From: an uncultured Clostridia bacterium
GTDB lineage: Bacteria > Bacillota > Clostridia > TANB77 > CAG-508
Direction of reading: 5' to 3'
NCBI GenBank assembly: GCA_944393435.1
Contig: CALYAE010000070.1
Coordinates: 1 to 37,722, forward strand
DNA length: 37,722 bases
Under the pieces are notes generated by a model that had not been told where the DNA came from, did no database searches, and was given only the letters and a program-made list of their open reading frames with translations. Both the position numbers and the translations under genes were made by a program. Positions 1,865 through 35,259 of the stretch are shown here, piece by piece; position 1 is the stretch's first letter, and every line of letters starts with the position of its first letter.

Positions 1865-2869
1865 TCACACAATATATTTAATTTCATTATGAGGAAAATA
1901 CTTTCTCATTAAATCTTTCAAAAAAATTTCCGCTTCCTGTCTTACTTCTTTTCGGTACGTATATTTTCCTTTTCCTCCTCCTGTCATAATATTTTGGTCA
2001 TATAAATTAATGAGACTCGGGAATGCTTCTGCATTAATCATACGATGTACATAACTATAAGTCATAAAAATGATTTCAAAAAAAGCTGTCTTTTTTACTT
2101 CTTGACTTAAGTTTTGGGCTAAATACTTCACAAGATTTGAATATTGCTCTCTCCAGTTTTCTACTAAAATAACAGGAGCAATTAAAATTCCTACTGGGTA
2201 TCTTGCTTGTTTTAGTTTATTTATAGCCTGCACTCTTTTTTCTAAAGGAGAGGTTCCTATTTCAATGGTTCTTATAATTTCTTTTGGGTTCACACTCATA
2301 CGGATGAGTAGTTTTCCTTTATGATCTAATGGTAAAATAGGGTCTACCATATCAAACTTGGTAGGCAAAGTCAAAAGTCCTTTGGGATGATCTTTAAAAT
2401 TTTCAATGGTCCAATTTAAGTTTCCTGTAATTGTGTTTTCTAAAATTAAATCACTATTACTTCCAATTTCAAAGGTTAAATTTTTTTCATTTTCATTTGC
2501 TACCTTTTTAATTTTATCTAACATTTGCTCACGATTTACAAATAGCCTCAAATAACTACATTTGTTATAATTGCAAACTAAGTAGCAGTATAAACACATA
2601 GCAACACAACCTGAAGAAGTATAAGGTACTAAAAAGTCGGATGTTTTATGGTTTGGTACAAACTTATGCGTTTTTCGAACTCCAATAATTAGGTTTTGTT
2701 TCATATTAGCAAATTCGCGATTTGATTTTTTTCTCTTTTCTTCTATATTGTTATGGTTTTGTATTTGGATACAAGGAATCTGCTTTTCTTGATATTTGGC
2801 TAGTAACTGTTTTCCTAACTCATAATTAGTAGCATCTTCTTCATAATAAATAGCTTTTGGCAAGAACAT
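1865..2869 (-). CDS. splB: Spore photoproduct lyase family radical SAM protein
   Basis: SGCVAMCLYCYL (CxxxCxxC), FEIGSNSD, TKF, RMSVNP, VGILIAPV motifs; 334 aa. Confidence 0.88.
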   Translation of the reverse strand: MFLPKAIYYEEDATNYELGKQLLAKYQEKQIPCIQIQNHNNIEEKRKKSNREFANMKQNLIIGVRKTHKFVPNHKTSDFLVPYTSSGCVAMCLYCYLVCNYNKCSYLRLFVNREQMLDKIKKVANENEKNLTFEIGSNSDLILENTITGNLNWTIENFKDHPKGLLTLPTKFDMVDPILPLDHKGKLLIRMSVNPKEIIRTIEIGTSPLEKRVQAINKLKQARYPVGILIAPVILVENWREQYSNLVKYLAQNLSQEVKKTAFFEIIFMTYSYVHRMINAEAFPSLINLYDQNIMTGGGKGKYTYRKEVRQEAEIFLKDLMRKYFPHNEIKYIV

Positions 2870-2923
2870 ATTTTATTTCTCCTTTTTTAAAATATATTCT
2901 TGCCAAAATAGCTTATTTTATTC
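2855..2923 (-). promoter_or_regulatory. Forespore sigma (F/G)-like promoter fused to a 21-bp hairpin occluding the splB start
   Basis: GAATA-N14-GGCAAGAATA. Arms 2855-2875 and 2888-2908 match 20/21 (the mismatch is a U-G pair); SD lies in the 12-nt loop and ATG in the stem. Confidence 0.65.
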
Positions 2924-2931
2924 TTTTTTCG

Positions 2932-4011
2932 TTAAGATTTATTTTCTTCTACCGTTTTTACATAAAGGTCTTGTGAAGGGTTTGCAAGCCTTACTCCTTC
3001 TGATTCAATCACATTTAAAATGGTTTCATTAACGTTAGTTCTAAATTTTAGAAAATCATTGTATGGAATAATATCTGTATACATAGCAATCATGATATTA
3101 ATGCCATCTGTTAAAATACTGTTACATTCTACCGTGATGGTATCTTTCATAATATCTTTATTATGATTTAATACAAATCTGAGACGATTTAAAATAGTTT
3201 CTATGGTTTCAGAATTCGTTTGCAAAGGTAGTTTTAAATTAATAGAATATCTTCTTTTCTCTATTTTTGCAAAGTTTACAACAGTTTCTTCTGATAATTT
3301 TGCATTTTGTATGGTTACAATCGTATCATCTGTTGTTTTAAGTCTGGTGCTTCTAAAAGTAATATCTACAACCGTTCCTTCATATTCAGTAGTCTGAATC
3401 CAATCTCCTACTACAAATGGTTTATCTAATAAAATGGCAGCTCCACCAAATAGATTTTTAGCCACATCTTGTGCCGCTAGTGCAATTACCACACTTCCTA
3501 ATCCTAAGCCTGTAATTAGCCCATTTAGATTAATATCTAATTCTGCTAAAATTAGAATACCAGCTCCTATATAGATAATGACTTTTGCAATTTTTCCAAT
3601 AAAGTTTGCTAAAGTTTCATTCCCACTAATGCGGTTTGTTTTTTGTATTTTTCTCATTAAAATAGAGTTTGGCTCAAAGATATTAGCAATTCCTTTGGCA
3701 CCTATTAAGATGAGTGTAATTTGCAATGCTTTCCTTATAAACACCATGGCATCTGCTGGTAAATCTAAGATGATAACACCTAAGTAGACACCAAGCACAA
3801 TAAATGCTGCTTTTAATGGATGATAAAAGGCATTTGCCTTTATCTTCTTTTTGTTTTTTTCTTTCCACTTAAAAATTTTAATAATACAGTAAGAAAGTAT
3901 GCCACTCAGTAAGGTCATGATAATCATAATTGCTAATGCTATACAAATATCAATCATTTTTTCTTGTGTCATATTTTGAAAAAATTCAATTACACTTCTT
4001 ATTTGTTTCAT
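2932..4011 (-). CDS. mscS: MscS-family mechanosensitive channel
   Basis: N-terminal TM helices; GLGLGSVVIALAAQDVAKNLFGG, DKPFVVGDWI, GTVVDITFRSTRLKT. Confidence 0.9.
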   Translation of the reverse strand: MKQIRSVIEFFQNMTQEKMIDICIALAIMIIMTLLSGILSYCIIKIFKWKEKNKKKIKANAFYHPLKAAFIVLGVYLGVIILDLPADAMVFIRKALQITLILIGAKGIANIFEPNSILMRKIQKTNRISGNETLANFIGKIAKVIIYIGAGILILAELDINLNGLITGLGLGSVVIALAAQDVAKNLFGGAAILLDKPFVVGDWIQTTEYEGTVVDITFRSTRLKTTDDTIVTIQNAKLSEETVVNFAKIEKRRYSINLKLPLQTNSETIETILNRLRFVLNHNKDIMKDTITVECNSILTDGINIMIAMYTDIIPYNDFLKFRTNVNETILNVIESEGVRLANPSQDLYVKTVEENKS

Positions 4012-4072
4012 CCCTTTCTTCTTTTTCTCCTTCCTTTTATTAATGCATAAATTGCATAAAATATGTTAGTTT

Positions 4073-4738
4073 TTATTTTGTATTTTTTGCAATCAAGGCC
4101 TTAATTTTAATTCCTTGTTCAGAAAACATTTTCTCATGTTCTGTTTCAATATTTTCCCAAAAGTCTACTTCTTGGTGCAAATCTTTGGTTTGCTTTTCAA
4201 TGGTAAACCTTGCTTCCTCAAAATACCTAATACTATGTTCAAATAGTTCTTCATCATCTGTTTTAAAATAGATTTTTCCCTCTGGTTTTAAAAATTCTTG
4301 GTAATGTTTTAATTGCCTTGTATGAGTTAGTCTTTTCTTATGGTGTTTGCCTCTTGGCCATGGATTACAAAAATTAATATAAATACCATCTACTTTGTCT
4401 GGTGTATCTAGAATGAGTAAAATACGTTCAATATCAAACCTTGTTAAAATAACATTATCAATTTCTTTTTTTGCATTTGCATAAAGTTCTTCTATTTTTC
4501 TTTTTGCTAAACCAAGCATAGGGTCTACTAAATCAATTGCTAAATAATTATTTTCTGGATGTTTACATGCTTTTTGAGCAATAAAACTTCCTTTCCCACA
4601 TCCTAGTTCTACAAAGAAAGGTTGGTTTTCATTTTTAAATTCTTTTCTCCATTTTCCTTTTAAAGTTTCTGGATATTCTCTATAAAACTTACTTTCTTCT
4701 AGTTCTTTTCTTGCCCATGGTTTATATCTGATTCTCAT
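4073..4738 (-). CDS. trmB: tRNA (guanine-N7)-methyltransferase
   Basis: VELGCGKG, NFCNPWPRGKHHKKRLT, FKTDD, TEHEKMF. Start at ATG 4738 (MRIRYKPW) after GGAGG. Confidence 0.93.
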   Translation of the reverse strand: MRIRYKPWARKELEESKFYREYPETLKGKWRKEFKNENQPFFVELGCGKGSFIAQKACKHPENNYLAIDLVDPMLGLAKRKIEELYANAKKEIDNVILTRFDIERILLILDTPDKVDGIYINFCNPWPRGKHHKKRLTHTRQLKHYQEFLKPEGKIYFKTDDEELFEHSIRYFEEARFTIEKQTKDLHQEVDFWENIETEHEKMFSEQGIKIKALIAKNTK

Positions 4739-4898
4739 TTTGTCTATCCTCCATTTGTATTTTAGCATACTATTTTGGGCTTTACAAGAAATTTTAAGTC
4801 GTATTTTGTTTTTTTATTAGAATTTTTGGTGAGTCATTGCCATTTTTATTTTTATGGTATAAAATATACTATGAAAAATATAGGTGAAAAAGGAGAGT

Positions 4899-6632: not shown

Positions 6633-6635
6633 GTC

Positions 6636-6786
6636 TTGCCAAGTGTTTCGCAAGAAATCGCCAAGAGCTCCCAAGTGGTCGCCAAAAGGACCGTCCCTGT
6701 TGGCGACCCCCTTGGCGACCCCCTTGGCGACCCCTTGGGAACTCTTGGCGAACTCTTGGCGATTCCTTGGCGAACTGCTGGTAACA
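6636..6786. repeat. GC-rich palindromic tandem array around a REP-like core, between convergent genes
   Basis: About 5 TCGCCAA-type units, core AAGGACCGTCCCTG (6686-6699), then 7-8 TTGGCGA-type units of 10-12 bp. Confidence 0.85.
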
Positions 6787-7992: not shown

Positions 7993-8048
7993 CTTTTCTT
8001 TACCTCTTTACATTTTTTGTAGAATTTCTTATTTTAAAACACATCTTC

Positions 8049-8621: not shown

Positions 8622-8670
8622 GACCCTCCCTCTTTGTTCAATCTTATAATTTTATAATTACTATCTTATT

Positions 8671-10696: not shown

Positions 10697-10706
10697 TTTT
10701 CCCCTC

Positions 10707-14075: not shown

Positions 14076-15833
14076 TTACTTGACATTTATTTTTTCTCTA
14101 GCTTGATAGGTTGTATGTAAAAGTTTATGTGCTAACTTTCCTCCTGGTTCTCCTAAAAACTCTCGATAAATTTTTTGTAAAGTAGGGTTTTTATGAGATA
14201 ATCTAATTTTACTTTTTTCATCAATGGAATACATTGCTTCTGCTCTTTTGGCTCTTACATCCACAGTTTCTTTCACTTTTGCACTTTGGATTGGTTGCCC
14301 TCCTCCCATGATGCAACCACCTGGGCAAGCCATAATTTCTACGAATTGATAATCTGCTTTTCCAGATTTTATTTCTTCCATGATTGTTTTTGCATTTCCT
14401 AGTCCATGTGCCACTGCAACTTTTATTTCTTTCTTTCCAATCATAATTGTGGCTTTTTTGATTCCTGTTTTTCCTCTTACTTCGTCAAAAGTGATTTTTT
14501 CTAAAGGCTTTCCTGTTAGTATTTCTGAAACACTTCTTAGAGCCGCTTCCATAACACCTCCTGTTACTCCAAAAATGGCACCTGCACCACTTGCTTCTCC
14601 CATCGGATCATCAAAACTTTCTTCTTCTAATTCTACAAATTCAATATTTGCTTGTTTAATCATTCTTGCCAGTTCTCTTGTCGTAATTACAGCATCTACA
14701 TCATACAAGCCATTATCTTTCATTTCATCTCTTTGACGTTCAAATTTTTTGGCAATACATGGCATAACTGATACAACAAATAATTTTTCTGGATTCATTT
14801 TTTGTTTTGCAGTATAATAGGTTTTTAAAATAGCTCCAAACATTTCATGTGGTGATTTGCAGCTAGACAAATGCTTTAAATTTTCAGGATAATTCATTTC
14901 AATATATTTTACCCAACCTGGACTACAAGAAGTAATCATTGGCAAATGGTCGTTTTCTTTAAGACGCTCTATAAATTCTGTGGCTTCTTCCATAATCGTA
15001 AAATCGGCACCAGTATTGGTATCAAATACTTTGTCAAATCCCAATCTCTTAAGACTTGCCACCATTTTTCCTGTAACATTAGTTCCTATTTGCATACCAA
15101 ACTCTTCTCCTAATGCCACACGTACTGCCGGAGCAGTTTGTACTACCACATAAGTATCTGGATCTTTTAGTTTCTGCCATACAATTTCCGTATCATCTTT
15201 TTCATGTAATGCACCTGTTGGACAAGCCTGGATACATTGCCCACAAAAAGTACAATTTACATCATTTAAACTTTTGTCATATGCAGTAGAAACACAAGAA
15301 GCAAAACCTCTTCCAATTGTATCAATTGCTCCCACTTTCTGCACCTTCTTACAGGTAGCTACACATCTTCTACATAAAATACATTTATTAAAATCACGTA
15401 CAATAGAAGGAGAAATATTATCTATTTTATGCTCTTTTTTCTCTCCTTCATAACGCACTCCTGTTACATTAAATTTAATTGCTAGAGCCTGCAACTCGCA
15501 ATTTCCATTTCGAGTGCAAGTCAAACAATCTCTATGATGGTTGGATAAAATTAAATCTAAGATAATCTTCCTTGCTTCTAAAACTGCTGGTGAATGGGTA
15601 TGTACAACCATTCCCTCTTCGACTTGCTGAATACAAGATGTTGCAAAGCCTTTCCTTCCTTCTACTTCTGTAATGCACATCCTGCAATCTCCAACTGCAT
15701 TGATTTCTTTTAGATAGCAAAGAGTTGGAATTTCAATATTTGCTTTTCTCGCCGCCTGCAAAATGGTCGTTCCTTTTGGAACTTCTATTTTTTTACCATC
15801 TATTGTCAAATGAATCATTGGTATTTCTGGCAT
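14076..15833 (-). CDS. hydA: Group A [FeFe]-hydrogenase catalytic subunit
   Basis: H-cluster motifs TSCSPGW, MPCIAKKFE, EIMACPGGCIMGGGQP; N-terminal 2Fe-2S, His-ligated and 2x4Fe-4S domains. Confidence 0.95.
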   Translation of the reverse strand: MPEIPMIHLTIDGKKIEVPKGTTILQAARKANIEIPTLCYLKEINAVGDCRMCITEVEGRKGFATSCIQQVEEGMVVHTHSPAVLEARKIILDLILSNHHRDCLTCTRNGNCELQALAIKFNVTGVRYEGEKKEHKIDNISPSIVRDFNKCILCRRCVATCKKVQKVGAIDTIGRGFASCVSTAYDKSLNDVNCTFCGQCIQACPTGALHEKDDTEIVWQKLKDPDTYVVVQTAPAVRVALGEEFGMQIGTNVTGKMVASLKRLGFDKVFDTNTGADFTIMEEATEFIERLKENDHLPMITSCSPGWVKYIEMNYPENLKHLSSCKSPHEMFGAILKTYYTAKQKMNPEKLFVVSVMPCIAKKFERQRDEMKDNGLYDVDAVITTRELARMIKQANIEFVELEEESFDDPMGEASGAGAIFGVTGGVMEAALRSVSEILTGKPLEKITFDEVRGKTGIKKATIMIGKKEIKVAVAHGLGNAKTIMEEIKSGKADYQFVEIMACPGGCIMGGGQPIQSAKVKETVDVRAKRAEAMYSIDEKSKIRLSHKNPTLQKIYREFLGEPGGKLAHKLLHTTYQAREKINVK

Positions 15834-15859
15834 TTTTCTTCTCCTTTCTTTCTAGAAAA

Positions 15860-15889
15860 GGACCAAAGGGGACTGTCCCCAATGGTACC
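15860..15889. repeat. Single REP-like palindrome between hydB and hydA
   Basis: GGACCAAAGGGGACTGTCCCCAATGGTACC; shares GTCCCCAATGGT with the 29837-29906 units. Confidence 0.65.
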
Positions 15890-15890
15890 A

Positions 15891-17747
15891 TTAGCTGATT
15901 GCATGGAATGGACAGCTACTAATACATGTACCACATTTAATACATTTTTCTTGACTAATTTTATGAACCTGTCCTGGCTCTCCAATAATAGCATCTGCTG
16001 GGCAATTTTTCTGACATATTCCACAACCTCTACATTTTTCACTTTCTATTTGAATAATAGATAATGCCTTACATTCTTTTGTTTTACATGTTTTATATTT
16101 AATATGTTCTAAATATTCCTCTCTAAAATATTTGAGAGTGGAAAGTACTGGATTTGGTGCTGATTGCCCTAGTCCACAAATGGCTGTTTTAGGAATAGCA
16201 GTAGCTAATTCTTCTAGTTTTTCTAGGTCTGTAAGTTCTGCTTTTCCTTCAGTAATTTTTTCTAATAACTCTAACATCCTTTTGGTTCCAATTCTACAAG
16301 GAGTACATTTTCCACAAGATTCTTCTACTGTGAAAGCTAAATAGAATTTTGGTAAATTCACCATGCATTTGGTGTCATCCATTACAATTAAGCCACCAGA
16401 TCCCATCATAGAGCCGATTTCTTTTAAAGATTCATAATCGATTGGCGTATCCAAATGTTCTTTTGGAATACAGCCTCCTGATGGTCCGCCTGTTTGAGCA
16501 GCTTTAAATTCTCTTCCATTCGGAATGCCTCCCCCTATATCGTAGATAATTTCTCTTAACGTAGTTCCCATAGGGACTTCTACTAATCCAATATTAACTA
16601 CATTTCCCCCAAGAGCAAATACTTTTGTTCCTTTTGAGTCTTTGGTACCTATTCCTGCATACCATTTAGCGCCATTTAAAATAATTTTAGGGATATTAGC
16701 AAAAGTTTCTACATTATTAATAAGAGTTGGTTTAAACCATAAGCCTTGACTTGCTGGATAAGGTGGTTTTACTCTTGGTTCTCCCCTTTTTCCTTCAATA
16801 GATTCTAAAAGTGCTGTTTCTTCTCCACAAACAAAGGCTCCTGCTCCCAAACGAATTTCGATATCAAAATTAAATCCAGTTTTCCAAATATTTTGTCCTA
16901 AAATTCCATATTCTCTTGCCTGATTAATTGCAATCTTTAACCTTTCTACTGCAATTGGATATTCTGCTCTTACGTAAATATATCCTTGAGTGGCACCAAT
17001 TGCATATCCTGCAATCATCATTGCTTCTAACACGCTATGTGGATCTCCTTCTAAAATACTTCTATCCATAAAAGCTCCTGGATCTCCTTCATCAGCATTA
17101 CAAACTACATATTTTTGTTTTCCTGGAGCTTGTTTTGTAAGTGACCACTTTTTCCCTGTTAAAAAACCTGCTCCTCCTCTTCCTCTTAAACCTGATTGTT
17201 CAACTGTTTGTATCACTTCTTCTTGTGACATTTCTAATAGTACTTTTTCTAGTGCTTGATATCCATCAAATGCAATATATTCATCAATATTTTCAGGATC
17301 TATTTTTCCACAATTTTGAAGAGCAATTCTTTTTTTTTTTTTATTAAAGGGAAGTTCATCTAACTTTTCTACTTGTTTTCCTTCCACATTTTTGCATAAA
17401 AGACGATTTACAGTTTTTCCTTCTATGATATGGGATTGTATGATTTCTTCACAATCTTCTGGAGAAACCATAGCATAAAAAATATTTTCTGGTCTAATAA
17501 TGACAATTGGCCCTTTGGCGCATAACCCAAAGCAACCTGTTTGAATCACTTTTACATTTTCTAACTTTTTTTCTTGAATGATTTTTCGAAAATTCTCTAT
17601 GATTTTAGGAGATTTAGAAGATGTACACCCTGTTCCATGGCACACTAAGATATGTTTTTCTTTTGTCCCGACATTTTCATTTACTCTAATATCTAATTGA
17701 CTTCTTTTTTCTTCTCTTAACTTTCTAATTTCTCCTATGCTTTTCAT
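15891..17747 (-). CDS. hydB: NuoF-like NADH/FMN-binding subunit of a bifurcating hydrogenase
   Basis: N-terminal thioredoxin-like 2Fe-2S, SGLRGRGGAGF, CNADEGDPG, FVCGEETAL, ESCGKCTPCR, C-terminal 2x4Fe-4S. Confidence 0.93.
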   Translation of the reverse strand: MKSIGEIRKLREEKRSQLDIRVNENVGTKEKHILVCHGTGCTSSKSPKIIENFRKIIQEKKLENVKVIQTGCFGLCAKGPIVIIRPENIFYAMVSPEDCEEIIQSHIIEGKTVNRLLCKNVEGKQVEKLDELPFNKKKKRIALQNCGKIDPENIDEYIAFDGYQALEKVLLEMSQEEVIQTVEQSGLRGRGGAGFLTGKKWSLTKQAPGKQKYVVCNADEGDPGAFMDRSILEGDPHSVLEAMMIAGYAIGATQGYIYVRAEYPIAVERLKIAINQAREYGILGQNIWKTGFNFDIEIRLGAGAFVCGEETALLESIEGKRGEPRVKPPYPASQGLWFKPTLINNVETFANIPKIILNGAKWYAGIGTKDSKGTKVFALGGNVVNIGLVEVPMGTTLREIIYDIGGGIPNGREFKAAQTGGPSGGCIPKEHLDTPIDYESLKEIGSMMGSGGLIVMDDTKCMVNLPKFYLAFTVEESCGKCTPCRIGTKRMLELLEKITEGKAELTDLEKLEELATAIPKTAICGLGQSAPNPVLSTLKYFREEYLEHIKYKTCKTKECKALSIIQIESEKCRGCGICQKNCPADAIIGEPGQVHKISQEKCIKCGTCISSCPFHAIS

Positions 17748-17805
17748 TTTGTTCTCCTTATTTTATTGATATCGTTCATAAAAATAATTAATTTGTATCA
17801 AATTT

Positions 17806-18243
17806 CTATTTTAATGTATCTAGTACTTCATCTAATTTTTTAACAGTTGCTCTTCCATAAACTTCTCCATTTACCGTGAAAACTGGTGCAATTCCGCAAG
17901 CTCCTAAGCAACGAGTAGAATCAATAGAAAACATTCCATCTTTTGTAGTTTCTCCTTCTTGAATTTTTAATCTATCTTTAAGTCGCTGCATGATTTTCTC
18001 TGACCCTTTTACAAAACAAGCGGTTCCCATACAAACAGAAATGACATATTTTCCCTTTGGCTTTAAGGTAAATCTAGAATAAAAAGTAATGACTCCATAA
18101 ATTTCTGCCATCGGAATTGCTAAATACTCAGAAATCTTTCTTTGTGCAATTTCAGGGATATATCCATATTTTACTTGTACATCATTTAAAATAGGAATTA
18201 AATTTTCTTTTTGTTTGGTATATGCGGCTAATATCTCTTCCAC
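17806..18243 (-). CDS. hydC: NuoE-like 2Fe-2S subunit of the hydrogenase
   Basis: GVITFYSRF, VCMGTAC, CLGACGIAP. Confidence 0.92.
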   Translation of the reverse strand: MEEILAAYTKQKENLIPILNDVQVKYGYIPEIAQRKISEYLAIPMAEIYGVITFYSRFTLKPKGKYVISVCMGTACFVKGSEKIMQRLKDRLKIQEGETTKDGMFSIDSTRCLGACGIAPVFTVNGEVYGRATVKKLDEVLDTLK

Positions 18244-18448: not shown

Positions 18449-19190
18449 CTACAACTTCATAATTTCTTGTTCTGTTAGTCCTGTTAAATTAACAATATCT
18501 GCTATTTTCATATTATTTAACAACATTTTCTTAGCTATTTGACGTTTTTCTTGTTCTATTCCTTTTTCTATTCCTTGCTTTATTCCTTTTTCTATTCCTT
18601 GCTTTATTCCTTTTTCTTCCCCTTCTTGAAGTGCTTTTTTCATTCCTTCTTCCATTCTTCTCTTAGCATTATTTTTCTTCCATATTTCATCTAATATTGC
18701 TTTTTCTCTTAAGTCTGCAATCCTTTGCATGTATTCATCCTCACTGATTGTATTTAGTTTATCTACTGCTTGTTTTAGTTCTTCATTATTTTCCATTTTT
18801 TCTATCACCCTTTCTGAATTCGGATTTTCCAAAAAGGTTAGCCAATCAATAAGCTCCTCTTCTTTCTGGTTATCTGCTACCTTTGGTATCTCTATTATAT
18901 GTATTTCGAACTTATCTGTCAAGATTAACTTTTTATTTTCTTTTTCTATGATTTTCCATTGGCTATGATACTCTAAAGTTTCTAATCCTTTCATTTTAAA
19001 ATCTGCAATTAGTACAACAATTGTCTTTTTTAGTTCGCTATAATCTTGGCCTTTTTTGATATCTCTAGTATACAACCTTTAAAGCCTGAAATACAATATC
19101 TAATTTAGGGGATAATTTCTTTGGTGATTTTTTTGGATTATCTTTTGTATCAAAATCTTTTTCTGAATTAAAATTTTTGAATGAATTCAT
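18449..19190 (-). pseudogene. Rpn-family PD-(D/E)XK nuclease/putative transposase with out-of-frame internal deletion
   Basis: ATG 19190 after AGGAG gives ...LSPKLDIVFQAL then a stop (19065). A different frame resumes RLYTRDIKKGQDYSEL...EIHIIEIPK...WLTFL...GIEKG repeats...IAKKML..LTGLT. The catalytic segment is missing. Confidence 0.82.
18557..18617. repeat. 24-bp tandem repeat x2.5 encoding GIKQGIEK
   Basis: TATTCCTTTTTCTATTCCTTGCTT twice plus a partial copy; typical of Rpn C-termini. Confidence 0.85.
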
Positions 19191-24748: not shown

Positions 24749-25555
24749 TTACCTTACAAATTCGTCTAAACTTTTAAATTCATAACCCATTTGTCTAATT
24801 TCTTTAATACATTCATCTAAAATATTGCTATTATCTTTTGAAGTTGCATGTAATAAGATGATAGCTCCTGGATGAATATTATCAAGTATTTTTTGTTTTC
24901 CATACTCTTGCCTTCCTTGTTTATTTTCATCCCAATCATCATAAGCTAAAGACCACATTACGGTTTTATACCCTAATGTATTAGTATATGCAACTGTTCT
25001 TTGGCTATATTCTCCTTTTGGTGGACGTATATATTTCATCTCATAACCAAATTTTTGATAGACAGCGGTATGTAAATCCATTACTTCTTTTTGAATTTCT
25101 TCATTGGTTAGATCTGGCATTGATTTGTGATTCACTGTATGATTTCCTACAATATGCCCTTCATCAATCATCTGTTTTACTAAGTCTGGCTGTGTATTCA
25201 AATAATGGGCTGTAATAAAAAAAGCCGCTGGAACCTGATTTTCTTTTAGTACTGCTAATATTTTAGAGGTATATCCTGCTTCATATCCTTCATCAAATGT
25301 TAAATATACATTTTTAGATTCTTTATTTCCCAGACACATTCCCTCGTATTCGTCTAAAATTTTTTTATTCACGCTTCCTACATCTGGTTGTTCGTGATTT
25401 TTTCCCCTTTTTAGCCCCCATCCAATTTTTTGATTACTCAAAGCAGTATTATTGCTAGTTTGTACTGTTTGATTACTTTCCATAACCATGATGGAAAATA
25501 AAAAAACTAGTAAAATCGAGGATAATAAAACAACAATATTTATTTTTTTCTTCAT
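24749..25555 (-). CDS. pdaA: Spore cortex muramic delta-lactam de-N-acetylase (polysaccharide deacetylase)
   Basis: Signal anchor; YLTFDEGYE, GHIVGNHTVNH, RPPKGEYS, WSLAYDDW, HPGAIILLH. Confidence 0.85.
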   Translation of the reverse strand: MKKKINIVVLLSSILLVFLFSIMVMESNQTVQTSNNTALSNQKIGWGLKRGKNHEQPDVGSVNKKILDEYEGMCLGNKESKNVYLTFDEGYEAGYTSKILAVLKENQVPAAFFITAHYLNTQPDLVKQMIDEGHIVGNHTVNHKSMPDLTNEEIQKEVMDLHTAVYQKFGYEMKYIRPPKGEYSQRTVAYTNTLGYKTVMWSLAYDDWDENKQGRQEYGKQKILDNIHPGAIILLHATSKDNSNILDECIKEIRQMGYEFKSLDEFVR

Positions 25556-25750: not shown

Positions 25751-25860
25751 TTCGACATAAAGAATTATTTTTTTAGCCACTATTGACAATCAAAATGATT
25801 TAGATTATATTATAATACGTAATTGGAAATTTTTAGGTGATTCTGTTAAGTTTTGTCGAA
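25751..25860 (+). promoter_or_regulatory. agrA sigma-A promoter flanked by two Spo0A boxes
   Basis: TTGACA (25783)-N17-TATATT; TTCGACA at 25751-25757 and TGTCGAA at 25854-25860. Confidence 0.6.
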
Positions 25861-25924
25861 TCACTTTTTCATGGGGTACCACTATGAAAGTTCTGAGAAT
25901 TTATGTTTTACGGAGGATAAGGGA

Positions 25925-26683
25925 ATGTTAAATTTTGTATTATGCGATGATAATTTAAAAGCACTTTCCAAATTGGAAAAAATGTTAGAATCTGTTTTCA
26001 TTAGCAAAAACTTAGAGGCACAAGTTGTGCTCAGTACTACTGAGCCAAGTGAGTTGGTTAATTATGTAAGAGATCATACAGTAAATGTTGTAGTTTTAGA
26101 TATTGAATTACGATCTCGAGTTACAGGATTGGACTTAGCCAATATGATTAGAAAGAAAGATAAAAATATTTATATTATTTTCACAACTGGTCATTTAGAA
26201 TATGGCTTAATGGCATACAGATATAAAACTTTTGACTACTTACCTAAACCAATTACAGTAGAAAGATTAGAAGATACAATTACTAGATTATTTGAAGATG
26301 TTTCAGGAACTCAAGTTAATTTTGTTAGATTAGATAATAATAAAACTATTATTAAGCAAGATAGTATTCAATATATTCGTAAAGACGGGATGAAAGTTGT
26401 TTTTCATACTGATACAAGGGATTATGAAACTTATAGCTCTTTTAAAAAGATCTTGCCACAATTACCTGAGCAATTTATTCAATGTCATAAGTCTTATATT
26501 GTTAACATGAAGAAAATTACAGATGTAGATACTGGAAGTAGTACAATCTGTTTAAATAATGACCAAAATTCAAAATGTTTTATTGGTCCTAAATATAAAA
26601 ATCAATTTATGGAGGTATTTAACGATGGAAATTTTTCAAACAATTTGGACAGCTCTTACAACGCCAAATCAGATGTTGACTAA
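25925..26683 (+). CDS. agrA: LytTR/AgrA-family response regulator
   Basis: MLNFVLCDDN after GGAGG; LDIEL, GLDLA, YLPKP, FIQCHKSYIVN. Confidence 0.9.
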   Translation: MLNFVLCDDNLKALSKLEKMLESVFISKNLEAQVVLSTTEPSELVNYVRDHTVNVVVLDIELRSRVTGLDLANMIRKKDKNIYIIFTTGHLEYGLMAYRYKTFDYLPKPITVERLEDTITRLFEDVSGTQVNFVRLDNNKTIIKQDSIQYIRKDGMKVVFHTDTRDYETYSSFKKILPQLPEQFIQCHKSYIVNMKKITDVDTGSSTICLNNDQNSKCFIGPKYKNQFMEVFNDGNFSNNLDSSYNAKSDVD

Positions 26684-27980
26684 TATTTTAGGTATTCCTA
26701 TCTTTTTTGTTGATGCAATTGTAAATATGTTATTATTTACAACAATTTTAAATATTAGCGTTTCTAAAAAGCAAAAAATTATTTATGTAATTACAATAAC
26801 AGTTATTGCTTTTTTATTTAGAACTTTTATTCCAAATCCATATACTGCTTTTGCTAATATTATTCTTACCATATTATTAGTCAAAATTATTTTAAAAGCA
26901 ACTTGGCTAAAATCTATTTTTGCTGAATTTATCGTACTAGCTTTTAGTAGTATTCTAGAATTATTCTGGTTTAGATTTTATTTGTCAGTATTCCAGGTGA
27001 CGCAAGAGCAATTATTAACAATTCCTCTTTATAGAATTTTATCAGTTAGTATTATCTACTTGTGTGTTTACTTATTTTATAGAATAATAAAATATTTAAA
27101 GTTTAATATCAATTTAGAAAATATGCCTAAAAAAGACAAGATTCTATTTATCTTTAGCACCTTATTAGGTATTATTGCAATCGGCACACAATTTTATTTA
27201 ATTTTCTTCTTTAATCATACTATGCCAATCGCAATTACTATTATCAGTATTTTAAGTTTGTTGGCTTACTTTTTAGTAAGTATTTACAGTTTATTAAACA
27301 CTTCAAAATTAGAAACTACATCGAGAAATTTAACAGAAGCACAATTATATAATAAAACCTTAACTTTATTACATGATAATATGAGAGGATTCAAACATGA
27401 TTTTCATAATATTGTACAAGGGCTTGGTGGTTACATAGAAACCAAAGATTTGGATGGACTTAAAAAATTCTATTCTCAATTATTAAAAGATTGTAATCGT
27501 GTTAATAACTTAACTACTTTAAATCCAAGCATCATTAATAATCCTGCTATTTATAATGTGTTAGCTACCAAATACCATAAAGCTGATGAAATCGGAGTAC
27601 AAATTAATTTAGGTATTTTTATGGACTTAAATGAAATTGAAAAACACATGAAAATTTATGAATTTACTAGAATCTTAGGTATCTTAATGGATAATGCTAT
27701 TGAAGCATCAGCTGAATGTCCTGACAAAGTTATTCATGTTAGTTTTCGTAAAGAAGAAAATCGTCATCGCTTATTAATGGTAATTGAAAATACTTATTTA
27801 GATAAAGATGTTGATATTGATAAAATTTTTGAAAAAGACTTTTCTACCAAACCTAAGAAAACAAATAGTGGACTTGGTTTATGGGAAATCAGACAAATCC
27901 TAAAAAGAAATAATAATTTAAACTTATTTACCACCAAAAATGAAGAATACTTTGTTCAACAATTTGAAATTTATTATTAA
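26625..27980 (+). CDS. agrC: AgrC-like membrane histidine kinase (GHKL)
   Basis: GGAGGT then ATG 26625 (59-nt overlap with agrA); multiple TM segments; RGFKHDFHN, LMDNAIEA, SGLGL. Confidence 0.9.
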   Translation: MEIFQTIWTALTTPNQMLTNILGIPIFFVDAIVNMLLFTTILNISVSKKQKIIYVITITVIAFLFRTFIPNPYTAFANIILTILLVKIILKATWLKSIFAEFIVLAFSSILELFWFRFYLSVFQVTQEQLLTIPLYRILSVSIIYLCVYLFYRIIKYLKFNINLENMPKKDKILFIFSTLLGIIAIGTQFYLIFFFNHTMPIAITIISILSLLAYFLVSIYSLLNTSKLETTSRNLTEAQLYNKTLTLLHDNMRGFKHDFHNIVQGLGGYIETKDLDGLKKFYSQLLKDCNRVNNLTTLNPSIINNPAIYNVLATKYHKADEIGVQINLGIFMDLNEIEKHMKIYEFTRILGILMDNAIEASAECPDKVIHVSFRKEENRHRLLMVIENTYLDKDVDIDKIFEKDFSTKPKKTNSGLGLWEIRQILKRNNNLNLFTTKNEEYFVQQFEIYY

Positions 27981-27989
27981 TCATCTGTC

Positions 27990-28033
27990 ACAAAAAAGTA
28001 GAACCTTTTAATCTAATGGTTCTACTTTTTTGT
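27990..28033. terminator. Bidirectional intrinsic terminator between agrC and agrD
   Basis: Perfect 16-bp arms ACAAAAAAGTAGAACC / GGTTCTACTTTTTTGT. Confidence 0.88.
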
Positions 28034-28078
28034 CGATTTTATGTTTTAAGGAAATATTTATTTTTTGTCTATTTTGAA

Positions 28079-28198
28079 CTAATCTTTTTTAATTAATGAT
28101 GCAGGCATTTTTGGTTGATGTAATAATCCTGCGATAAAGCATGCTGTATTGGTAGATTTAGCATATTTTTCTGCAACTTTAGCTAATAATTTTAACAT
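28079..28198 (-). CDS. agrD: Cyclic (thio)lactone autoinducer precursor, 39 aa
   Basis: AAGGAGG RBS; MLKLLAKVAEKYAKSTNTACFIAGLLHQPKMPASLIKKD*; AC...HQPKxP motif directly downstream of agrB. Not in ORF track. Confidence 0.9.
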   Translation of the reverse strand: MLKLLAKVAEKYAKSTNTACFIAGLLHQPKMPASLIKKD

Positions 28199-28266
28199 TT
28201 GTGTGTTCCTCCTTAAATAAAATTATATAATAAGCATTGCCGGCTAATGCATTATTAACTAAAAAT

Positions 28267-28890
28267 TTATGAGATAGACTCTTTAGCATAAACTTCATAT
28301 CCATATTTTGTGTTTGTCAATTTATAAGCAAGTGGAGTAATGGTTAAATTTTGTAAAAATATTCCATAGATAAGCATGTAACTAACCACTCTGTCTGGAT
28401 TCCATAAAATAATACTTAATAAAATAATTAAAAATATATATGCTTTTATCTTTTTACTTTTTCTTTCCTTTTGACTTAAGATCGGAATACTCTCTGTATC
28501 TGCTGGTGCATATTTTTGAATAAAAATAATGCTCCAAATTCCTATTAAACTAGCTAAAATATATAAAATATAATTTTGTGGTATAAGAACAAATCGAGCT
28601 AACACTACTGGTAACATATATAAAATCAAAGTAGTTATCATACAACCCCAATGAGTTTTTAAATGAAACCCACCTGTAAAGCTACGGTATGGGGCTAATA
28701 ATAAGAATAAAATTACTGTATACCATCCAATACCTAAGATAAAACTTATAACAAATAAAACAAGAATTTTAGGTAATTCACCAAAGATAAGTCTTACTCC
28801 AAAATCGATTACAAGTTCTTTTTCTTCATCTATATTTTCTACATTTTCTTTAATCTTCTTTGTTATAAAATCGCAAAATTTATCAATCAT
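28267..28890 (-). CDS. agrB: Accessory gene regulator B family peptidase
   Basis: RSFTGGFH....GC catalytic His/Cys, YAPADT, multi-TM. Confidence 0.92.
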   Translation of the reverse strand: MIDKFCDFITKKIKENVENIDEEKELVIDFGVRLIFGELPKILVLFVISFILGIGWYTVILFLLLAPYRSFTGGFHLKTHWGCMITTLILYMLPVVLARFVLIPQNYILYILASLIGIWSIIFIQKYAPADTESIPILSQKERKSKKIKAYIFLIILLSIILWNPDRVVSYMLIYGIFLQNLTITPLAYKLTNTKYGYEVYAKESIS

Positions 28891-29040: not shown

Positions 29041-29077
29041 AAAAACAAACCATCAATTTTTCTGATAGTTTGTTTTT
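29041..29077 (-). terminator. Intrinsic terminator after rluA
   Basis: AAAAACAAACCATCA / TGATAGTTTGTTTTT arms with one wobble pair. Confidence 0.7.
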
Positions 29078-29094
29078 ATTGCTCATTTTTATTG

Positions 29095-29775: not shown

Positions 29776-29799
29776 ATTTTTTCCTCTTTTTTTACATCG

Positions 29800-29906
29800 T
29801 GTCACTAATGGGGACGTTCCTTAAAAGTGACAAAAATGTCACTAACAAGCTACGTCCCCAATGGTGACAAAAGTGTCACCAACAAGCTACGTCCCCAATG
29901 GTGAAA
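29800..29906. repeat. Cluster of three 33-bp REP-like palindromes (period 37 bp; first inverted)
   Basis: TGTCACY-N19-RGTGACA with an ACGTCCCC core at 29800, 29837 and 29874; the third overlaps the methyltransferase 3' end. Confidence 0.85.
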
Positions 29907-30765: not shown

Positions 30766-30829
30766 ATTTTCCTCACTTATTTATTACTTTCTATTTTTTA
30801 TTTCGCTTTTTTTGATTTGTTTTGTTTTA

Positions 30830-31039
30830 TTATAAAGTTTCTAATATATGAATAAAATTCATCACTAAAATGCTATCTGCCGCAATCAAGATAATCATAA
30901 ACAAAATACTAGTCATTAAAATTTTATGTCTTTTGATACTTTCTAAAAAGTGGCTTGTCCTATTTTTTACTTTGAATTTAACAGTGTTGTTTGCCTCGTC
31001 ATAACGAACATTTAAAATTAAATCTTTTGTGTACTCCAT
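30830..31039 (-). CDS. Small hypothetical membrane protein (69 aa), possibly sporulation-expressed
   Basis: GGGAGG RBS; one C-terminal TM segment; sigma-E-like promoter upstream. Confidence 0.7.
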   Translation of the reverse strand: MEYTKDLILNVRYDEANNTVKFKVKNRTSHFLESIKRHKILMTSILFMIILIAADSILVMNFIHILETL

Positions 31040-31040
31040 A

Positions 31041-31102
31041 CATAAAATCCTCCCATTTTATTTTCTTATTAATATCTATGCTACTAGTTTGGATTTTATG
31101 AC
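31041..31102 (-). promoter_or_regulatory. sigma-E-like promoter with a 10-bp inverted repeat pairing to the RBS region
   Basis: GTCATAAA-N14-CATAGATA; arms CATAAAATCC (31041-31050) / GGATTTTATG (31091-31100). Confidence 0.55.
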
Positions 31103-31132
31103 AACAATCGTATTACAAAATATGACATAATT

Positions 31133-32935
31133 TTAGTTTGAATGATTCTCTAAGTCCTCTTTAATTTTTTGTGCAAACTTAAGTGTAATTCCTGGTATTT
31201 CTGCAATCTGCTCACAACTTGCTTTTTTGATTTGACTAACAGAACCAAATTTTTTAAGAAGTGCATTTTTTCTGGCTTCTCCTATTCCTTCTATTACATT
31301 TAAGGCTGATGCTGTCATTTGCTTATCTCTTAATTTTCTATGATATCCAATTGCTGTATCGTGGATACAATCTTGAAATGCAGTAATAGTATTCATAAGA
31401 TCTTCTGATAATTCTAATTGTTCTTGATTTTCTGTAATTAAAGCTCTTGTTCTATGCCTATTATCTTTTACCATACCATACACAGGAATAGATAAGTCTA
31501 ATTCTTGAATAGCTTGTTTGGCAGCTTTGATTTGAGTAACTCCTCCATCTACAAAAATAACATCTGGTAATTTTCCAAAAGCTCCTGTTGTATTTTCAAT
31601 GGAATGGCGAAGTCTACGTTTTATAACTTCCCAAATGCATTTTGGATCATCTTGTCCAAGCACGCTTTTAATTTGAAATTTACGAGATAGGCTTTTATTA
31701 ATCTCTCCATCTTTTAACACACACATAGCTGCCACAATATATTCCCCTGCAAGGTTAGAAATATCATATCCTTCAATTTTTCTTGGTAATTTTTCTAAAT
31801 GTAATACTTCTTTTAATTCATTTACAATACTACTTTTTTCTCTTTCCTTATTAGTTAATGTAATTTGGGCATTTTTTTCTGCCATTTCTACTAATTTTAA
31901 CTTTTCACCTTTTTGTGGAACTTTGATTTCTACTTTTCTTCCTGCTTTTTGGGAAAGCCATTCTTCTAATAATTCCTTATCTTCTACTTCTTCTTTGACC
32001 ATGATTTTATTAGGAAGCAGAATATTATCCATATAATATTGTTTGATGAAATTGGATAAAATTTCTTTATCTTCTTCATCTTGTAAATCATCAAAAAAGT
32101 AATGATATCTTTCTACCATTTTGCGATCGCGAATTAAGAATAGTTCAATACAAACTTGCATTTGACTTTTGGCAATTCCTATCACATCAATATCATGTTC
32201 TGATAAGTTGGATACTTTTTGCTTTTCTTCTGTAATTCGTTCAATTGCAAGTTTCTTATCTCTTAACTGAGCCGCTTTTTCAAATTCTAATTCACTTGCC
32301 GCTTGCTTAATTTCTTTATCTAATTGTCTTAGTATCCTATCTGTTTTTCCTTCTAATAAACTAATGACCTGCCCTATTTGTTTTTTATATTCTTCTTCCG
32401 AAATTTTTCCAATACAAGGTCCAGCACATTTTTTAATATGATAATTCAAACATGCCCTGTTTTTAAATTTGAAGTTCTTACATTGCCTAATTTGAAATTT
32501 CGATTTGATAAATTCAATCATTTCCTTTGCTGAACTAGCACTTGCATAAGGACCAAAATATTTAGCACCATCATTTAAAATTTTTCTTGTCATATATACA
32601 TTGGGGAATTGTGCTTTAACATTTACTTTAATATATGGATAGGTTTTATCATCTTTTAATAAAACATTAAATTTTGGCATGTTCTTTTTAATTAAATTAC
32701 ACTCTAAAATTAATGCTTCTGATTCATTATCAGTAACAATATATTCAAAATGATCTATCAAAGAGACCATATTTTCAATTCTTTTTGTTTTATGATTTTT
32801 TCTAAAGTATTGCCTTACTCTATTTTTTAAAGACACTGCTTTTCCTACATAAATAATATGGTCATCTTTATCTTTCATTAAATAGACACCTGGTTTATTG
32901 GGTAATTTTTTTAGTTCTTCTTCTATATTAAAAAT
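31133..32935 (-). CDS. uvrC: Excinuclease ABC subunit C, apparent ATT start
   Basis: (I)FNIEEELKKLPNKPGVYLMKD..IIYVGKA GIY-YIG, UVR domain, IEGYDIS, HhH. SD GGAGGTG lies 6 nt before ATT 32935. Confidence 0.93.
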   Translation of the reverse strand: MFNIEEELKKLPNKPGVYLMKDKDDHIIYVGKAVSLKNRVRQYFRKNHKTKRIENMVSLIDHFEYIVTDNESEALILECNLIKKNMPKFNVLLKDDKTYPYIKVNVKAQFPNVYMTRKILNDGAKYFGPYASASSAKEMIEFIKSKFQIRQCKNFKFKNRACLNYHIKKCAGPCIGKISEEEYKKQIGQVISLLEGKTDRILRQLDKEIKQAASELEFEKAAQLRDKKLAIERITEEKQKVSNLSEHDIDVIGIAKSQMQVCIELFLIRDRKMVERYHYFFDDLQDEEDKEILSNFIKQYYMDNILLPNKIMVKEEVEDKELLEEWLSQKAGRKVEIKVPQKGEKLKLVEMAEKNAQITLTNKEREKSSIVNELKEVLHLEKLPRKIEGYDISNLAGEYIVAAMCVLKDGEINKSLSRKFQIKSVLGQDDPKCIWEVIKRRLRHSIENTTGAFGKLPDVIFVDGGVTQIKAAKQAIQELDLSIPVYGMVKDNRHRTRALITENQEQLELSEDLMNTITAFQDCIHDTAIGYHRKLRDKQMTASALNVIEGIGEARKNALLKKFGSVSQIKKASCEQIAEIPGITLKFAQKIKEDLENHSN

Positions 32936-33101
32936 AGCTCACACCTCCATTTCCTTTCCTATTTTATCATATTTTTTCGTTTTTTACAATTTTTATTCTA
33001 TTTAAGAGTACTCTTTGCTATTTTCCTACCCTTTGACACATTACATTTTTTATAGTAATATAATAGCATAAAATATAAATCATGAATGGAGGTAGCACAA
33101 A

Positions 33102-34940
33102 ATGTGTGGAAGTGTTGGTTATATAGGAGATAAACAAGCCACTCCTATTTTAATGAATGGCTTATTAAGTTTAGAATACAGAGGATATGATTCTGCTGGT
33201 ATTGCAGTGATTGAAAATAATGAGATTACTGTTATGAAAGATAAAGGAAGAGTAGCAAACTTAAAGGCTATTGATGGAATTGATACTTTAACTTCACAAG
33301 TTGGTATTGCACATACTAGATGGGCAACTCATGGAAAACCATCAAAAGAAAATGCACATCCTCATGTTGATAATCACAATCAATTTGCTGTTGTACATAA
33401 TGGAATTATTGAAAATTATCATGAATTAAAAGAATTTTTAACACAAAAAGGATATCATTTTATATCTCAAACCGATACTGAAGTTATTCCTAATTTAATT
33501 GACTATTATTATAAAAATGGTATTTCTGATGAAGATCCATTTTTAAGAGCCGTTAAATCTGCGGTAGATAATTTAAAGGGTAGTTATGCTTTAGAAGTCA
33601 TTTCTAAATTATTTCCTGATAGAATTATTGTAGTTAGAAAAGATAGTCCATTAGTGATTGGAAAAGGAAAAAAAGAAAACTTTGTTGCATCTGATATTCC
33701 TGCAATTCTTGCTTATACGAAGGATTTTTATTTATTAGATGATTATGAATATGCTGTCATTAAGCAAGATGAAATTCATTTTTATGATAACACTTTATTA
33801 GAACATAGCAAGGCAATTAAGAATATTGAATGGGATGCTACATCAGCTGAAAAAAATGGTTATGAAGATTATATGTTAAAAGAAATTTATGAACAACCAA
33901 ATTCAATTCGCGAAACCATTGGCTCTAGACTAAAATTAGGCGAACCTTGTAGTTTTGATGATTTAGACTTTACCAAAGAATATTTAGATACTATTCATCA
34001 AATTTATATTGTAGCTTGTGGTACAGCAATGCATGCTGGTTTAGTTGGGAAAACTGCTTTGGAAAGACTTTGTCATATTCCTGTTCAAGTAGATATTGCA
34101 TCTGAGTTCCGCTATCGTGATCCAATTATTGATGAAAAAACACTTTGCATCTATATTAGTCAATCTGGAGAAACCGCTGATACACTTGCTGCTTTGAAAT
34201 TAGCTAAATCTAAAGGTGCAAAAACATTAGCAATTTCTAATGTAATTGGAAGTTCTATTACTCGTGAGGCTGATTATACTATTTATACACATGCTGGTCC
34301 TGAAATTGCTGTTGCTTCCACAAAAGCCTATACTTCTCAGGTAGTGTTGATTTGCATGCTAGCAATTCATTTTGCTGAAATTCTAGATTGCAAGCAAGAA
34401 TCTGTTTTAGAAAATTTAAAATCTGATATTCTAGATTTGCCAACTAAAATAGAAGCCGTATTAGACAAAGCCGAAGAAGTACAAAAATTTGCTAAAAAAG
34501 TGTATACAGAGCATGATATGTATTTCTTAGGAAGAGGTACTGATTATCATGTTGCTATGGAAGGTTCCTTAAAATTAAAAGAAATTTCTTATATTCATTC
34601 AGAGGCTTATGCTGCTGGTGAATTAAAGCACGGACCAATTGCTTTAATTGAAAATGGCATTACAGTCATTACTATTTTGACAAATCCTGATTTAGTGGAA
34701 AAATCCATCAGCAATATTCAGGAAGTAATCACAAGAGGAGCCAAAACATTGGTAGTAACCAATCAAAAATTAAGTAATGTAAATTTTGATTATGTTATCA
34801 ATATTCCTGAAACAAACGAACTAATCTCCCCTATCCTCTCTGTAATACCACTTCAGCTTCTTTCTTATTATATTTCTAAAAATAAGGGGCTAGATGTGGA
34901 TAAACCAAGAAATTTAGCAAAATCTGTTACAGTAGAATAA
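33102..34940 (+). CDS. glmS: Glutamine-fructose-6-phosphate transaminase
   Basis: MCG.., EYRGYDSAG, HTRWATHG, SQSGETADT, ELKHGPIAL, PRNLAKSVTVE. Confidence 0.97.
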   Translation: MCGSVGYIGDKQATPILMNGLLSLEYRGYDSAGIAVIENNEITVMKDKGRVANLKAIDGIDTLTSQVGIAHTRWATHGKPSKENAHPHVDNHNQFAVVHNGIIENYHELKEFLTQKGYHFISQTDTEVIPNLIDYYYKNGISDEDPFLRAVKSAVDNLKGSYALEVISKLFPDRIIVVRKDSPLVIGKGKKENFVASDIPAILAYTKDFYLLDDYEYAVIKQDEIHFYDNTLLEHSKAIKNIEWDATSAEKNGYEDYMLKEIYEQPNSIRETIGSRLKLGEPCSFDDLDFTKEYLDTIHQIYIVACGTAMHAGLVGKTALERLCHIPVQVDIASEFRYRDPIIDEKTLCIYISQSGETADTLAALKLAKSKGAKTLAISNVIGSSITREADYTIYTHAGPEIAVASTKAYTSQVVLICMLAIHFAEILDCKQESVLENLKSDILDLPTKIEAVLDKAEEVQKFAKKVYTEHDMYFLGRGTDYHVAMEGSLKLKEISYIHSEAYAAGELKHGPIALIENGITVITILTNPDLVEKSISNIQEVITRGAKTLVVTNQKLSNVNFDYVINIPETNELISPILSVIPLQLLSYYISKNKGLDVDKPRNLAKSVTVE

Positions 34941-35201
34941 TTACATGAATAATTTTAGTACAACTAATAGTACCGCTCCTGGAATTCCTAAAACTCCTAC
35001 TAAAATAGCAGTTGCAATATTTAAACCTATATGGAAACCAAAGGTACTACCTACTAAATTAATGAAAAAAATTAGAATTCCACCTAAAATAGAATTCACA
35101 ATTAATTTCATAATTGCTTTTAAGGGAATGGAAAAAACCTTCCCTACAATCCATAAAACAATTATACATGCTAAAATTGTTAAGCCATTAGAAAAGTCCA
35201 A
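34941..35201 (-). CDS. bofA: Pro-sigmaK processing inhibitor BofA family
   Basis: 86-aa membrane protein, NSILG..L.F.N..G...G.HIGLN...VGVLGIPG; follows the yaaL-like gene; TTG start. Confidence 0.88.
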   Translation of the reverse strand: MDFSNGLTILACIIVLWIVGKVFSIPLKAIMKLIVNSILGGILIFFINLVGSTFGFHIGLNIATAILVGVLGIPGAVLLVVLKLFM

Positions 35202-35259
35202 ATTCTATCACCATTCCTTTATTAGTTTATAAATATGATAGAATTTGGACAAATATGAC
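35196..35259 (-). promoter_or_regulatory. sigma-E-like promoter fused to a 15-bp hairpin occluding the bofA RBS/start
   Basis: GTCATATT-N14-CATATTTA; perfect arms GTCCAAATTCTATCA (35196-35210) / TGATAGAATTTGGAC (35236-35250). Confidence 0.7.

Follow-up and report, generated by a model that had tools for sequence, protein, structure and literature searches.

Helices pairing promoter-like motifs with translation starts at bofA, splB and a small genus-specific gene in an uncultured Clostridia bacterium

A 37,722-nt contig of an uncultured Clostridia bacterium (CALYAE010000070.1 of assembly GCA_944393435.1; contig C70 in this analysis and hereafter the window) was found to carry three genes whose translation start is complementary to a segment of promoter-like DNA lying just upstream of it, namely bofA, the spore photoproduct lyase gene splB and a gene for a protein of 69 amino acids (aa). 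Each gene lies behind a co-oriented neighbour, and it is likely that the resulting helices form only in long transcripts reading through from that neighbour and mask the start sites there, so that masking would be specific to one transcript isoform. Comparison with related genomes indicates that the observation is very well supported by evolution for bofA and splB, and the mechanism appears plausible. The genome containing the window, that of a gut bacterium, is small at 1.13 Mb, with ~29% G+C, and is 97.8% complete.

All features of the three loci lie on the minus strand. The coding sequence of bofA (34941–35201; TIGR02862, 69.2 bits with a cut-off of 53.35) begins with TTG and lies 58 nt behind the stop codon of a DUF2508 (YaaL-like) gene (35260–35535; PF10704). 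The 3′ arm of its helix (35196–35210) takes in the 3′ part of the Shine-Dalgarno sequence (GGTGAT, 35207–35212), the spacer, the TTG start and codon 2. The 5′ arm (35236–35250), 9 nt past the upstream stop codon, takes up the whole 14-nt spacer in a sigma-E-like motif (−35-like element 35252–35259, −10-like element 35230–35237) and overlaps its −10-like element. The splB coding sequence (1865–2869; TIGR04070, E = 8.5e-73) follows a gene for an MscS-like channel (2932–4011) after a gap of 62 nt. Its 3′ arm (2855–2875), in which compensatory changes were seen, spans the 6 nt before the ATG, the ATG itself (2867–2869) and codons 2–5. According to both the sequence reading and the fold, the Shine-Dalgarno sequence AAGGAG (2879–2884) is held in the 12-nt helix loop, with the ATG in the stem. 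The splB 5′ arm (2888–2908), with the upstream stop codon 23 nt before it, overlaps the −10-like element of a forespore-type motif (2894–2904), for which GAATA (2919–2923), part of a conserved GAATAAT block in the alignment, is the −35-like element of the putative promoter. This motif, kept in 23 of 28 aligned loci, is one we take by its resemblance to the consensus to be of the sigma-F/G (forespore) type. The 69-aa open reading frame (ORF; 30830–31039) lies 93 nt behind uvrC (31133–32878; TIGR00194, E = 1e-167); its 3′ arm (31041–31050) covers the 3′ part of the Shine-Dalgarno sequence and the spacer, and its 5′ arm (31091–31100) overlaps the −35-like element (31095–31102) of a sigma-E-like motif with a −10-like element at 31073–31080.

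A first-pass annotation of the window had described inverted repeats of 21, 10 and 15 bp at splB, the 69-aa gene and bofA, and all three were recovered where it had placed them, the first 21 nt long at 95% complementarity and the others perfect over 10 and 15 nt. It had also placed the three genes directly behind co-oriented genes with no evident terminator; the gene calls agree with this, and a simple scan by standard terminator rules detected nothing resembling a terminator in the three gaps. As each arm occurs only once in the genome, a dispersed repeat of the repetitive extragenic palindrome (REP) type was rejected.

The stability of these structures was assessed by folding the long leaders as RNA, with 200 shuffles each, and by comparison with leaders cut after the 5′ arm. 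The long splB leader reached a minimum free energy (MFE) of −28.3 kcal/mol (z = −8.1) and that of bofA −24.7 kcal/mol (z = −5.95), with none of the 200 shuffles as good in either case. The short leaders, at −1.0 kcal/mol for splB and −4.1 kcal/mol for bofA, were unstructured across the ribosome-binding site and start. The long leader of the 69-aa gene (−13.8 kcal/mol, z = −0.21) was matched by 82 of 200 shuffles and as a single sequence is not significant. A two-strand duplex energy between the upstream segment and the start region was then computed for 965 gene starts, called in the genome with a crude caller of our own that missed some genes and misplaced some starts. The genome mean was −7.1 with a standard deviation (sd) of 3.05, and bofA ranked 1, splB 4 and the 69-aa gene 39; by opening energy the ranks were 2, 22 and 111. 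Perfect start-region repeats of at least 10, 12 and 15 nt were present at 22, 8 and 2 of the 965 starts. Two sporulation genes with divergent promoters, pdaA (24749–25555, minus strand; TIGR02884) and the YaaL-like DUF2508 gene, had been put forward by the first-pass annotation as lacking such a hairpin, and their duplex ranks of 571 and 890 bear this out.

The bofA helix was followed through 30 loci of the genus, in which BofA identity is 56–77%. A helix of 15–17 bp was found in 27 loci within a short window, and with a wider window all 30 loci reached −12 kcal/mol or lower. The three loci at first taken to be without a helix (L021, L022 and L025) do have the 5′ arm, displaced to about −110 by an insertion of ~65 nt; the loop there is ~90 nt long and the arms are still perfectly complementary. 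It should also be noted that this insertion inside the helix loop (genomes G015, G017 and G025), ~120 nt upstream of bofA, contains a second promoter-like motif. In the alignment 95.3% of 449 cells are paired, compared with 33–47% in a sliding control in which the partner column was displaced by 1–3 columns. One pair occurs as six pair types (AU 11, UA 7, GC 5, GU 2, UG 2, CG 1) and another as three (UA 16, CG 6, AU 4), while the closing pair is G-C in 17 and G-U in 12 of the 30 loci. Conservation of the −35-like and −10-like elements around the 5′ arm is complete or at least 90% in the genus alignment. The mean duplex of a locus's own arms was −20.1 as against −16.1 for foreign arms, and none of 5000 permutations was as low; since the compared genomes are related, these cross-genome counts are not independent and the permutation values, here and below, are not true probabilities.

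Outside the genus, a bofA helix with other arm letters was found in all three loci of family f4 (z = −3.6 to −5.5). No bofA helix was found in the 17 loci of families f2, f3 and f5 (z = −0.5 to 1.5); in families f2 and f5 the upstream stop codon is in many loci no more than 10–20 nt from the bofA start. The start codon itself is TTG in all 30 genus loci and ATG in 20 loci of other families, and the TTG lies in the helix, where it pairs with CAA of the 5′ arm.

For splB, 28 loci were usable, two of 30 being too near a contig end. The duplex between a locus's own arms was −22 kcal/mol or lower in 21 of them, intermediate (−12.4 to −16.0) in three and absent in four. Each of the 23 in-genus loci in which the upstream ORF is co-oriented has a helix, over gaps of 43–175 nt and behind differing upstream genes; the small opposite-strand ORFs (53–71 aa) that lie nearer to splB in five of these 23 loci are taken to be spurious. 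In one locus from another family a canonical terminator follows the upstream gene and no helix is present. The 14-pair core is 84.9% paired, with 29–49% in the slid controls. The compensatory changes are at synonymous sites within codons, one pair being GC in 20 and AU in 5 loci and another having five types (AU 16, GU 3, CG 1, GC 1, UA 1), and U is the partner of the ATG's G in 26 of 26 loci. Towards the loop, the two strands of the stem likewise change together; insertions and deletions kept this part out of the column count. Own arms averaged −20.7 and foreign arms −15.3, with none of 5000 permutations as low. As a separate observation, the splB matches in G015, G017 and G025 come in two pieces inside one 359-aa open frame, which suggests an insertion of ~14–25 residues near residue 72.

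The 69-aa protein was present in 35 of 36 genomes of the genus and in none of 24 others. It has no match in Pfam or NCBIfam, and its 14 homologues are all unnamed. The gene is a putative sporulation gene, as its conserved sigma-E-like motif suggests. Its helix is weak: own arms give a duplex of −9.9, foreign arms one of −8.5 and shuffled sequence one of −6.6 (sd 2.2). Across 29 distinct rows of the alignment, 87.1% of cells are paired as compared with 41–56% when slid, five pairs have changes on both sides, and the covariation score of 0.229 (0.130 in shuffles) was not reached in any of 500 shuffles. Covariation of the two arms in relatives, which the first-pass annotation had proposed to look for, was in this way seen in all three genes.

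On comparative grounds, then, the alignments show that the helices exist and are under selection as sense-strand RNA pairings, that their 5′ arms coincide with conserved promoter-like motifs and that the design recurs. The tolerance of G-U and U-G pairs on the sense strand (12 of 30 loci at the closing pair of bofA, 26 of 26 at the start codon of splB) fits an RNA helix of the sense strand and not one of DNA or antisense RNA. The conserved −35-like and −10-like elements overlap the 5′ arms, and transcription starts are for this reason predicted to lie after the arms. We infer from this layout the presence of read-through transcripts, starts downstream of the 5′ arm and a block to translation in the long form. 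The 5′ arm would be the DNA of the gene's own developmental promoter, consisting of the spacer and −10 region for bofA and splB and of the −35 edge for the 69-aa gene, and the 3′ arm would be the ribosome-binding site and/or start codon. In messenger RNA (mRNA) reading through from the co-oriented upstream gene, the helix would hide the start site and the gene would stay untranslated. A transcript from the gene's own sporulation-sigma promoter would begin downstream of the 5′ arm, could form no helix and would be translated. The result would be a double gate, transcriptional and translational, that needs no terminator in a gap of 58–93 nt. This isoform-specific masking is preferred because of the position of the arms relative to the promoter-like motifs, the selection for RNA pairing, the close co-oriented neighbours, the replacement of the helix by a terminator in one relative, and precedent.

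The main rival explanation places the true transcription start upstream of the 5′ arm, so that the helix would belong to the gene's own mRNA and act as a constant damper or as a switch opened by a factor, by temperature or at a certain time. A leader hairpin of this kind lowers sigG translation 2–4-fold in its own transcript in B. subtilis, according to the account in PMC5942855. It is also in keeping with this view that, among the three in-genus splB loci with a divergent upstream gene, which form one clade, two retain a weaker helix (MFE −13.5 and −14.9) with a Leu-to-Ile codon change matched in the 5′ arm, the third having lost the helix. A permanent structure at the start codon with an energy of −25 to −28 kcal/mol would, however, all but prevent translation. 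In addition, the coincidence of the 5′ arms with −35-like and −10-like elements leads to an expected start at or past the arm end, no second conserved promoter-like motif was found upstream, and a distance of just 43–60 nt separates the upstream stop codon from the start in most loci. A helix in the gene's own mRNA is thus considered unlikely. Even less likely is that the hairpins serve the upstream gene as intrinsic terminators or attenuators and overlap the next start by chance. The gaps do contain no other terminator-like site, and at bofA the stem base is G+C-rich and a T-rich tail comes after the 3′ arm (in 15 of 30 loci it is TTTTCTAA), which may point to a side effect on termination at this gene. 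Against it, the standard-rule scan calls none of the three hairpins, no T tract follows the stem of the splB helix or of the 69-aa helix, and the loops measure 12–40 nt, or ~90 nt in the three insertion-bearing bofA loci. In every gene set, moreover, the 3′ arm tracks the Shine-Dalgarno sequence and start codon and not the end of the upstream gene, the distance to which ranges over 43–175 nt.

Translational coupling, in which ribosomes finishing the upstream gene would melt the helix so that the downstream gene is translated only together with its neighbour, would suit the bofA of the window, where the 5′ arm starts merely 9 nt past the upstream stop codon. It fits the other loci poorly, as the arm begins 23 nt past the stop for splB and 32 nt past it for the 69-aa gene, and in relatives the helix stays fixed to the start as the gap and the upstream genes vary. 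Where bofA has the insertion, in three loci, the helix spans ~90 nt with its 5′ arm still near the stop, and upstream translation failed to relieve structures of this type in the experiments described in PMC8208050. Coupling is accordingly held to be very improbable. Action at the level of DNA, with the repeat serving as a palindromic operator bound by a dimeric regulator or forming a cruciform, would account for the location of the arms in or beside promoter DNA; the arm letters, however, change between clades while complementarity is kept, the common sense-strand G-U pairs would be mismatches in DNA, and the arm spacing varies from 12 to ~90 nt. It is given hardly any weight here.

To return to isoform-specific masking, the duplex scan was also used to look for further cases in the genome. 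Strong duplexes (−12 or lower) were found at 31 of 274 genes lying 30–120 nt behind a co-oriented gene and at 29 of 609 genes situated otherwise (p = 7e-4). Promoter patterns for sigma-E, -F, -G and -K, written as regular expressions from the B. subtilis consensus, matched 31 of 961 genes, with none of splB, the 69-aa gene and bofA among the matches. The first-pass annotation had named an equal frequency before vegetative genes as speaking against its reading, and such pairings were indeed not equally frequent. Duplexes of −13 or lower occurred in 7 of 31 genes with a sporulation motif and in 36 of 930 others (p = 4e-4), and those of −15 or lower in 5 of 31 and 9 of 930, an enrichment to be read with the caveat that sporulation −10 elements contain a CATA core whose own sequence complements U-AUG. 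Among the top 46 duplexes there were none of the 27 genes with a sigma-A motif. Within the motif genes, a strong duplex was present in six of 16 behind a close co-oriented gene and in one of 15 elsewhere (p = 0.08). The 5′ arm overlapped the motif in 7 of 7 strong and 15 of 24 weak cases, a difference too near chance to weigh much.

The conservation of further gene sets was examined with one uniform measure, counting the loci at −12 or lower. All 30 loci of sigG, the positive control, reached this value, with an anti-Shine-Dalgarno segment in the promoter spacer, and five of 30 loci did so for the DUF2508 gene, the negative control. The count was 24 of 30 for the 69-aa gene and 14 of 28 for splB, whose 5′ arm is cut by the window of this measure. 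A gene for a 194-aa protein with a sigma-G motif reached 24 of 30, its −10 element pairing with the start codon region, and a gene for a 136-aa protein reached 10 of 15, with arms that vary between subclades and match their own Shine-Dalgarno sequence. For spoIIP, 14 of 23 loci reached −12 and six of 23 had z ≤ −2.5; a clear anti-Shine-Dalgarno segment in the promoter spacer was seen in one subclade only, and spoIIP was rejected as a conserved member across the genus.

Other strong pairings were noted in passing. Upstream of a DUF5665 gene (G000:C9:2040-2330, L093) there is a 12-bp hairpin with a T run that looks like the terminator of the upstream gene, and its 3′ arm contains the Shine-Dalgarno sequence of the downstream gene. 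The genes for RNase III (rnc; G000:C89:11308-11976, L104) and SMC (C65:3522-7064, L107) also have strong upstream-to-start pairings, and the rnc leader hairpin overlaps a sigma-A-like −35 element. The rnc gene is autoregulated through its own leader, which this hairpin recalls.

Several points weigh against the proposed masking or against its extent, in addition to the crude gene calls, the relatedness of the compared genomes and the T-rich tail of bofA, which could contribute to termination. The promoters are conserved motifs and their assignment to sigma factors goes through the B. subtilis consensus, so that this part of the evidence is indirect. The retention of a helix by two splB loci with a divergent neighbour suggests that read-through from a neighbouring gene may not be the sole selective reason for the splB helix. 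When the best 45 genes of the scan were compared with random genes, 40 of them being annotated and five left out as probable mis-called starts, the excess of sporulation genes was marginal, with seven of 40 (bofA, splB, SigG, a SigF-like factor, SpoIIP, SpoIIE and a PdaB-like deacetylase) as against one of 40 random genes (YabQ; two-sided p = 0.057). The pairing is also not specific to sporulation. At a class II aminoacyl-tRNA synthetase gene (G000:C64:30956-32455), whose conserved promoter is of sigma-A type, a 5′ arm immediately ahead of the −35 element pairs with the start, and this was found in 11 of 23 genus loci (L098/L289, L290-L311), five of them with z ≤ −2.5. Most of the synthetase loci with the pairing lie 80–147 nt behind a co-oriented gene.

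The design is in sum enriched at predicted sporulation-type promoters and is not confined to them. The suggestion of the first-pass annotation that this lineage uses it systematically holds in part: sigG, the 194-aa gene, the 136-aa gene and part of the spoIIP clade can be added, but so must a synthetase promoter of sigma-A type. Its interpretation as a whole is partly supported. It is possible, though we would put it forward only tentatively, that promoter-embedded anti-start helices are a rule across the regulon, applying to many sigma-E, -F, -G and -K genes behind housekeeping genes and to some internal sigma-A promoters. If so, pairing between promoter and start would silence read-through mRNA and replace terminators in very short gaps, and the complementarity of the CATA core to U-AUG would ease the evolution of such helices.

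Elsewhere in the window, a set of agr-like quorum-sensing genes for a LytTR response regulator, an AgrC-like histidine kinase and an AgrB-like protein (25853–28890) adjoins the pdaA-yqfC-yqfD sporulation cluster. A three-gene NADH-dependent [FeFe] hydrogenase of group A6 with NuoF-like and NuoE-like subunits is encoded at 14076–18243; a fragment of an Rpn-family nuclease/transposase comes next (18449–19075).

The layout described here could be of use for predicting developmental promoters and productive transcripts from sequence in uncultured spore-formers, and it could offer compact natural parts for insulating genes from read-through. It also carries a warning for metatranscriptomes, in that RNA levels of such genes need not mean protein. 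No publication describing such helices at bofA or splB was found in a search that left subscription journals and one supplementary file of PMC8208050 outside its reach. Earlier publications describe the mechanism for sigG, the sigma-B regulon and IS10; bofA and splB are further, well-supported members, as judged by comparative analysis.

The closest precedent is sigG of B. subtilis, where a helix of 20+ bp is described as blocking translation of spoIIGA-sigE read-through transcripts and as unable to form in transcripts from PsigG (PMC5942855). The sigG gene of the present genus has the same layout in all 30 loci. In contrast to the B. subtilis case, the strongest examples here are bofA and splB, mother-cell-type as well as forespore-type motifs are involved, and the support comes from covariation and not from experiments. 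IS10 follows the same logic, its own transcript starting inside the structure. Protection of IS10/Tn10 from external promoters (Davis, Simons and Kleckner, 1985, as cited in PMC13181058) involves incoming transcripts in which the transposase translation start is paired; there a mobile element is kept from chance activation, whereas the genes considered here are chromosomal and developmental.

A similar principle has been reported as dual induction by sigma-B in B. subtilis, for ctc, yvrE and six other genes, with up to 100-fold differences in translation between isoforms (PMC8208050; McCormick et al., 2021). The long sigma-A isoform hides the Shine-Dalgarno sequence and start codon, and the start used by the alternative sigma factor lies inside the structure. 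These results were obtained by end-enriched RNA sequencing (Rend-seq), ribosome profiling, dimethyl sulfate mutational profiling with sequencing (DMS-MaPseq) and reporters, and little conservation was reported outside B. subtilis. Supplemental Data 2 of the same study gives isoform flags only, and no structures, for B. subtilis bofA, splA, splB and sigG. The loci of the window share with these genes a co-oriented upstream gene without a terminator and an extended structure over the Shine-Dalgarno sequence and start codon. They differ in having sporulation-type promoters in place of those of a stress sigma factor, in their deep conservation with compensatory changes, and in being known from sequence alone. 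The published cases of sigG and the eight sigma-B genes are one-species experiments with little evidence of selection on the structures, whereas the layout found here has been kept by compensatory changes throughout a genus, for bofA in two families, and covers genes of the sporulation programme. The authors of PMC8208050 suggest that further alternative sigma factors may follow this principle, and the conserved layout at sporulation genes lends support to that suggestion.

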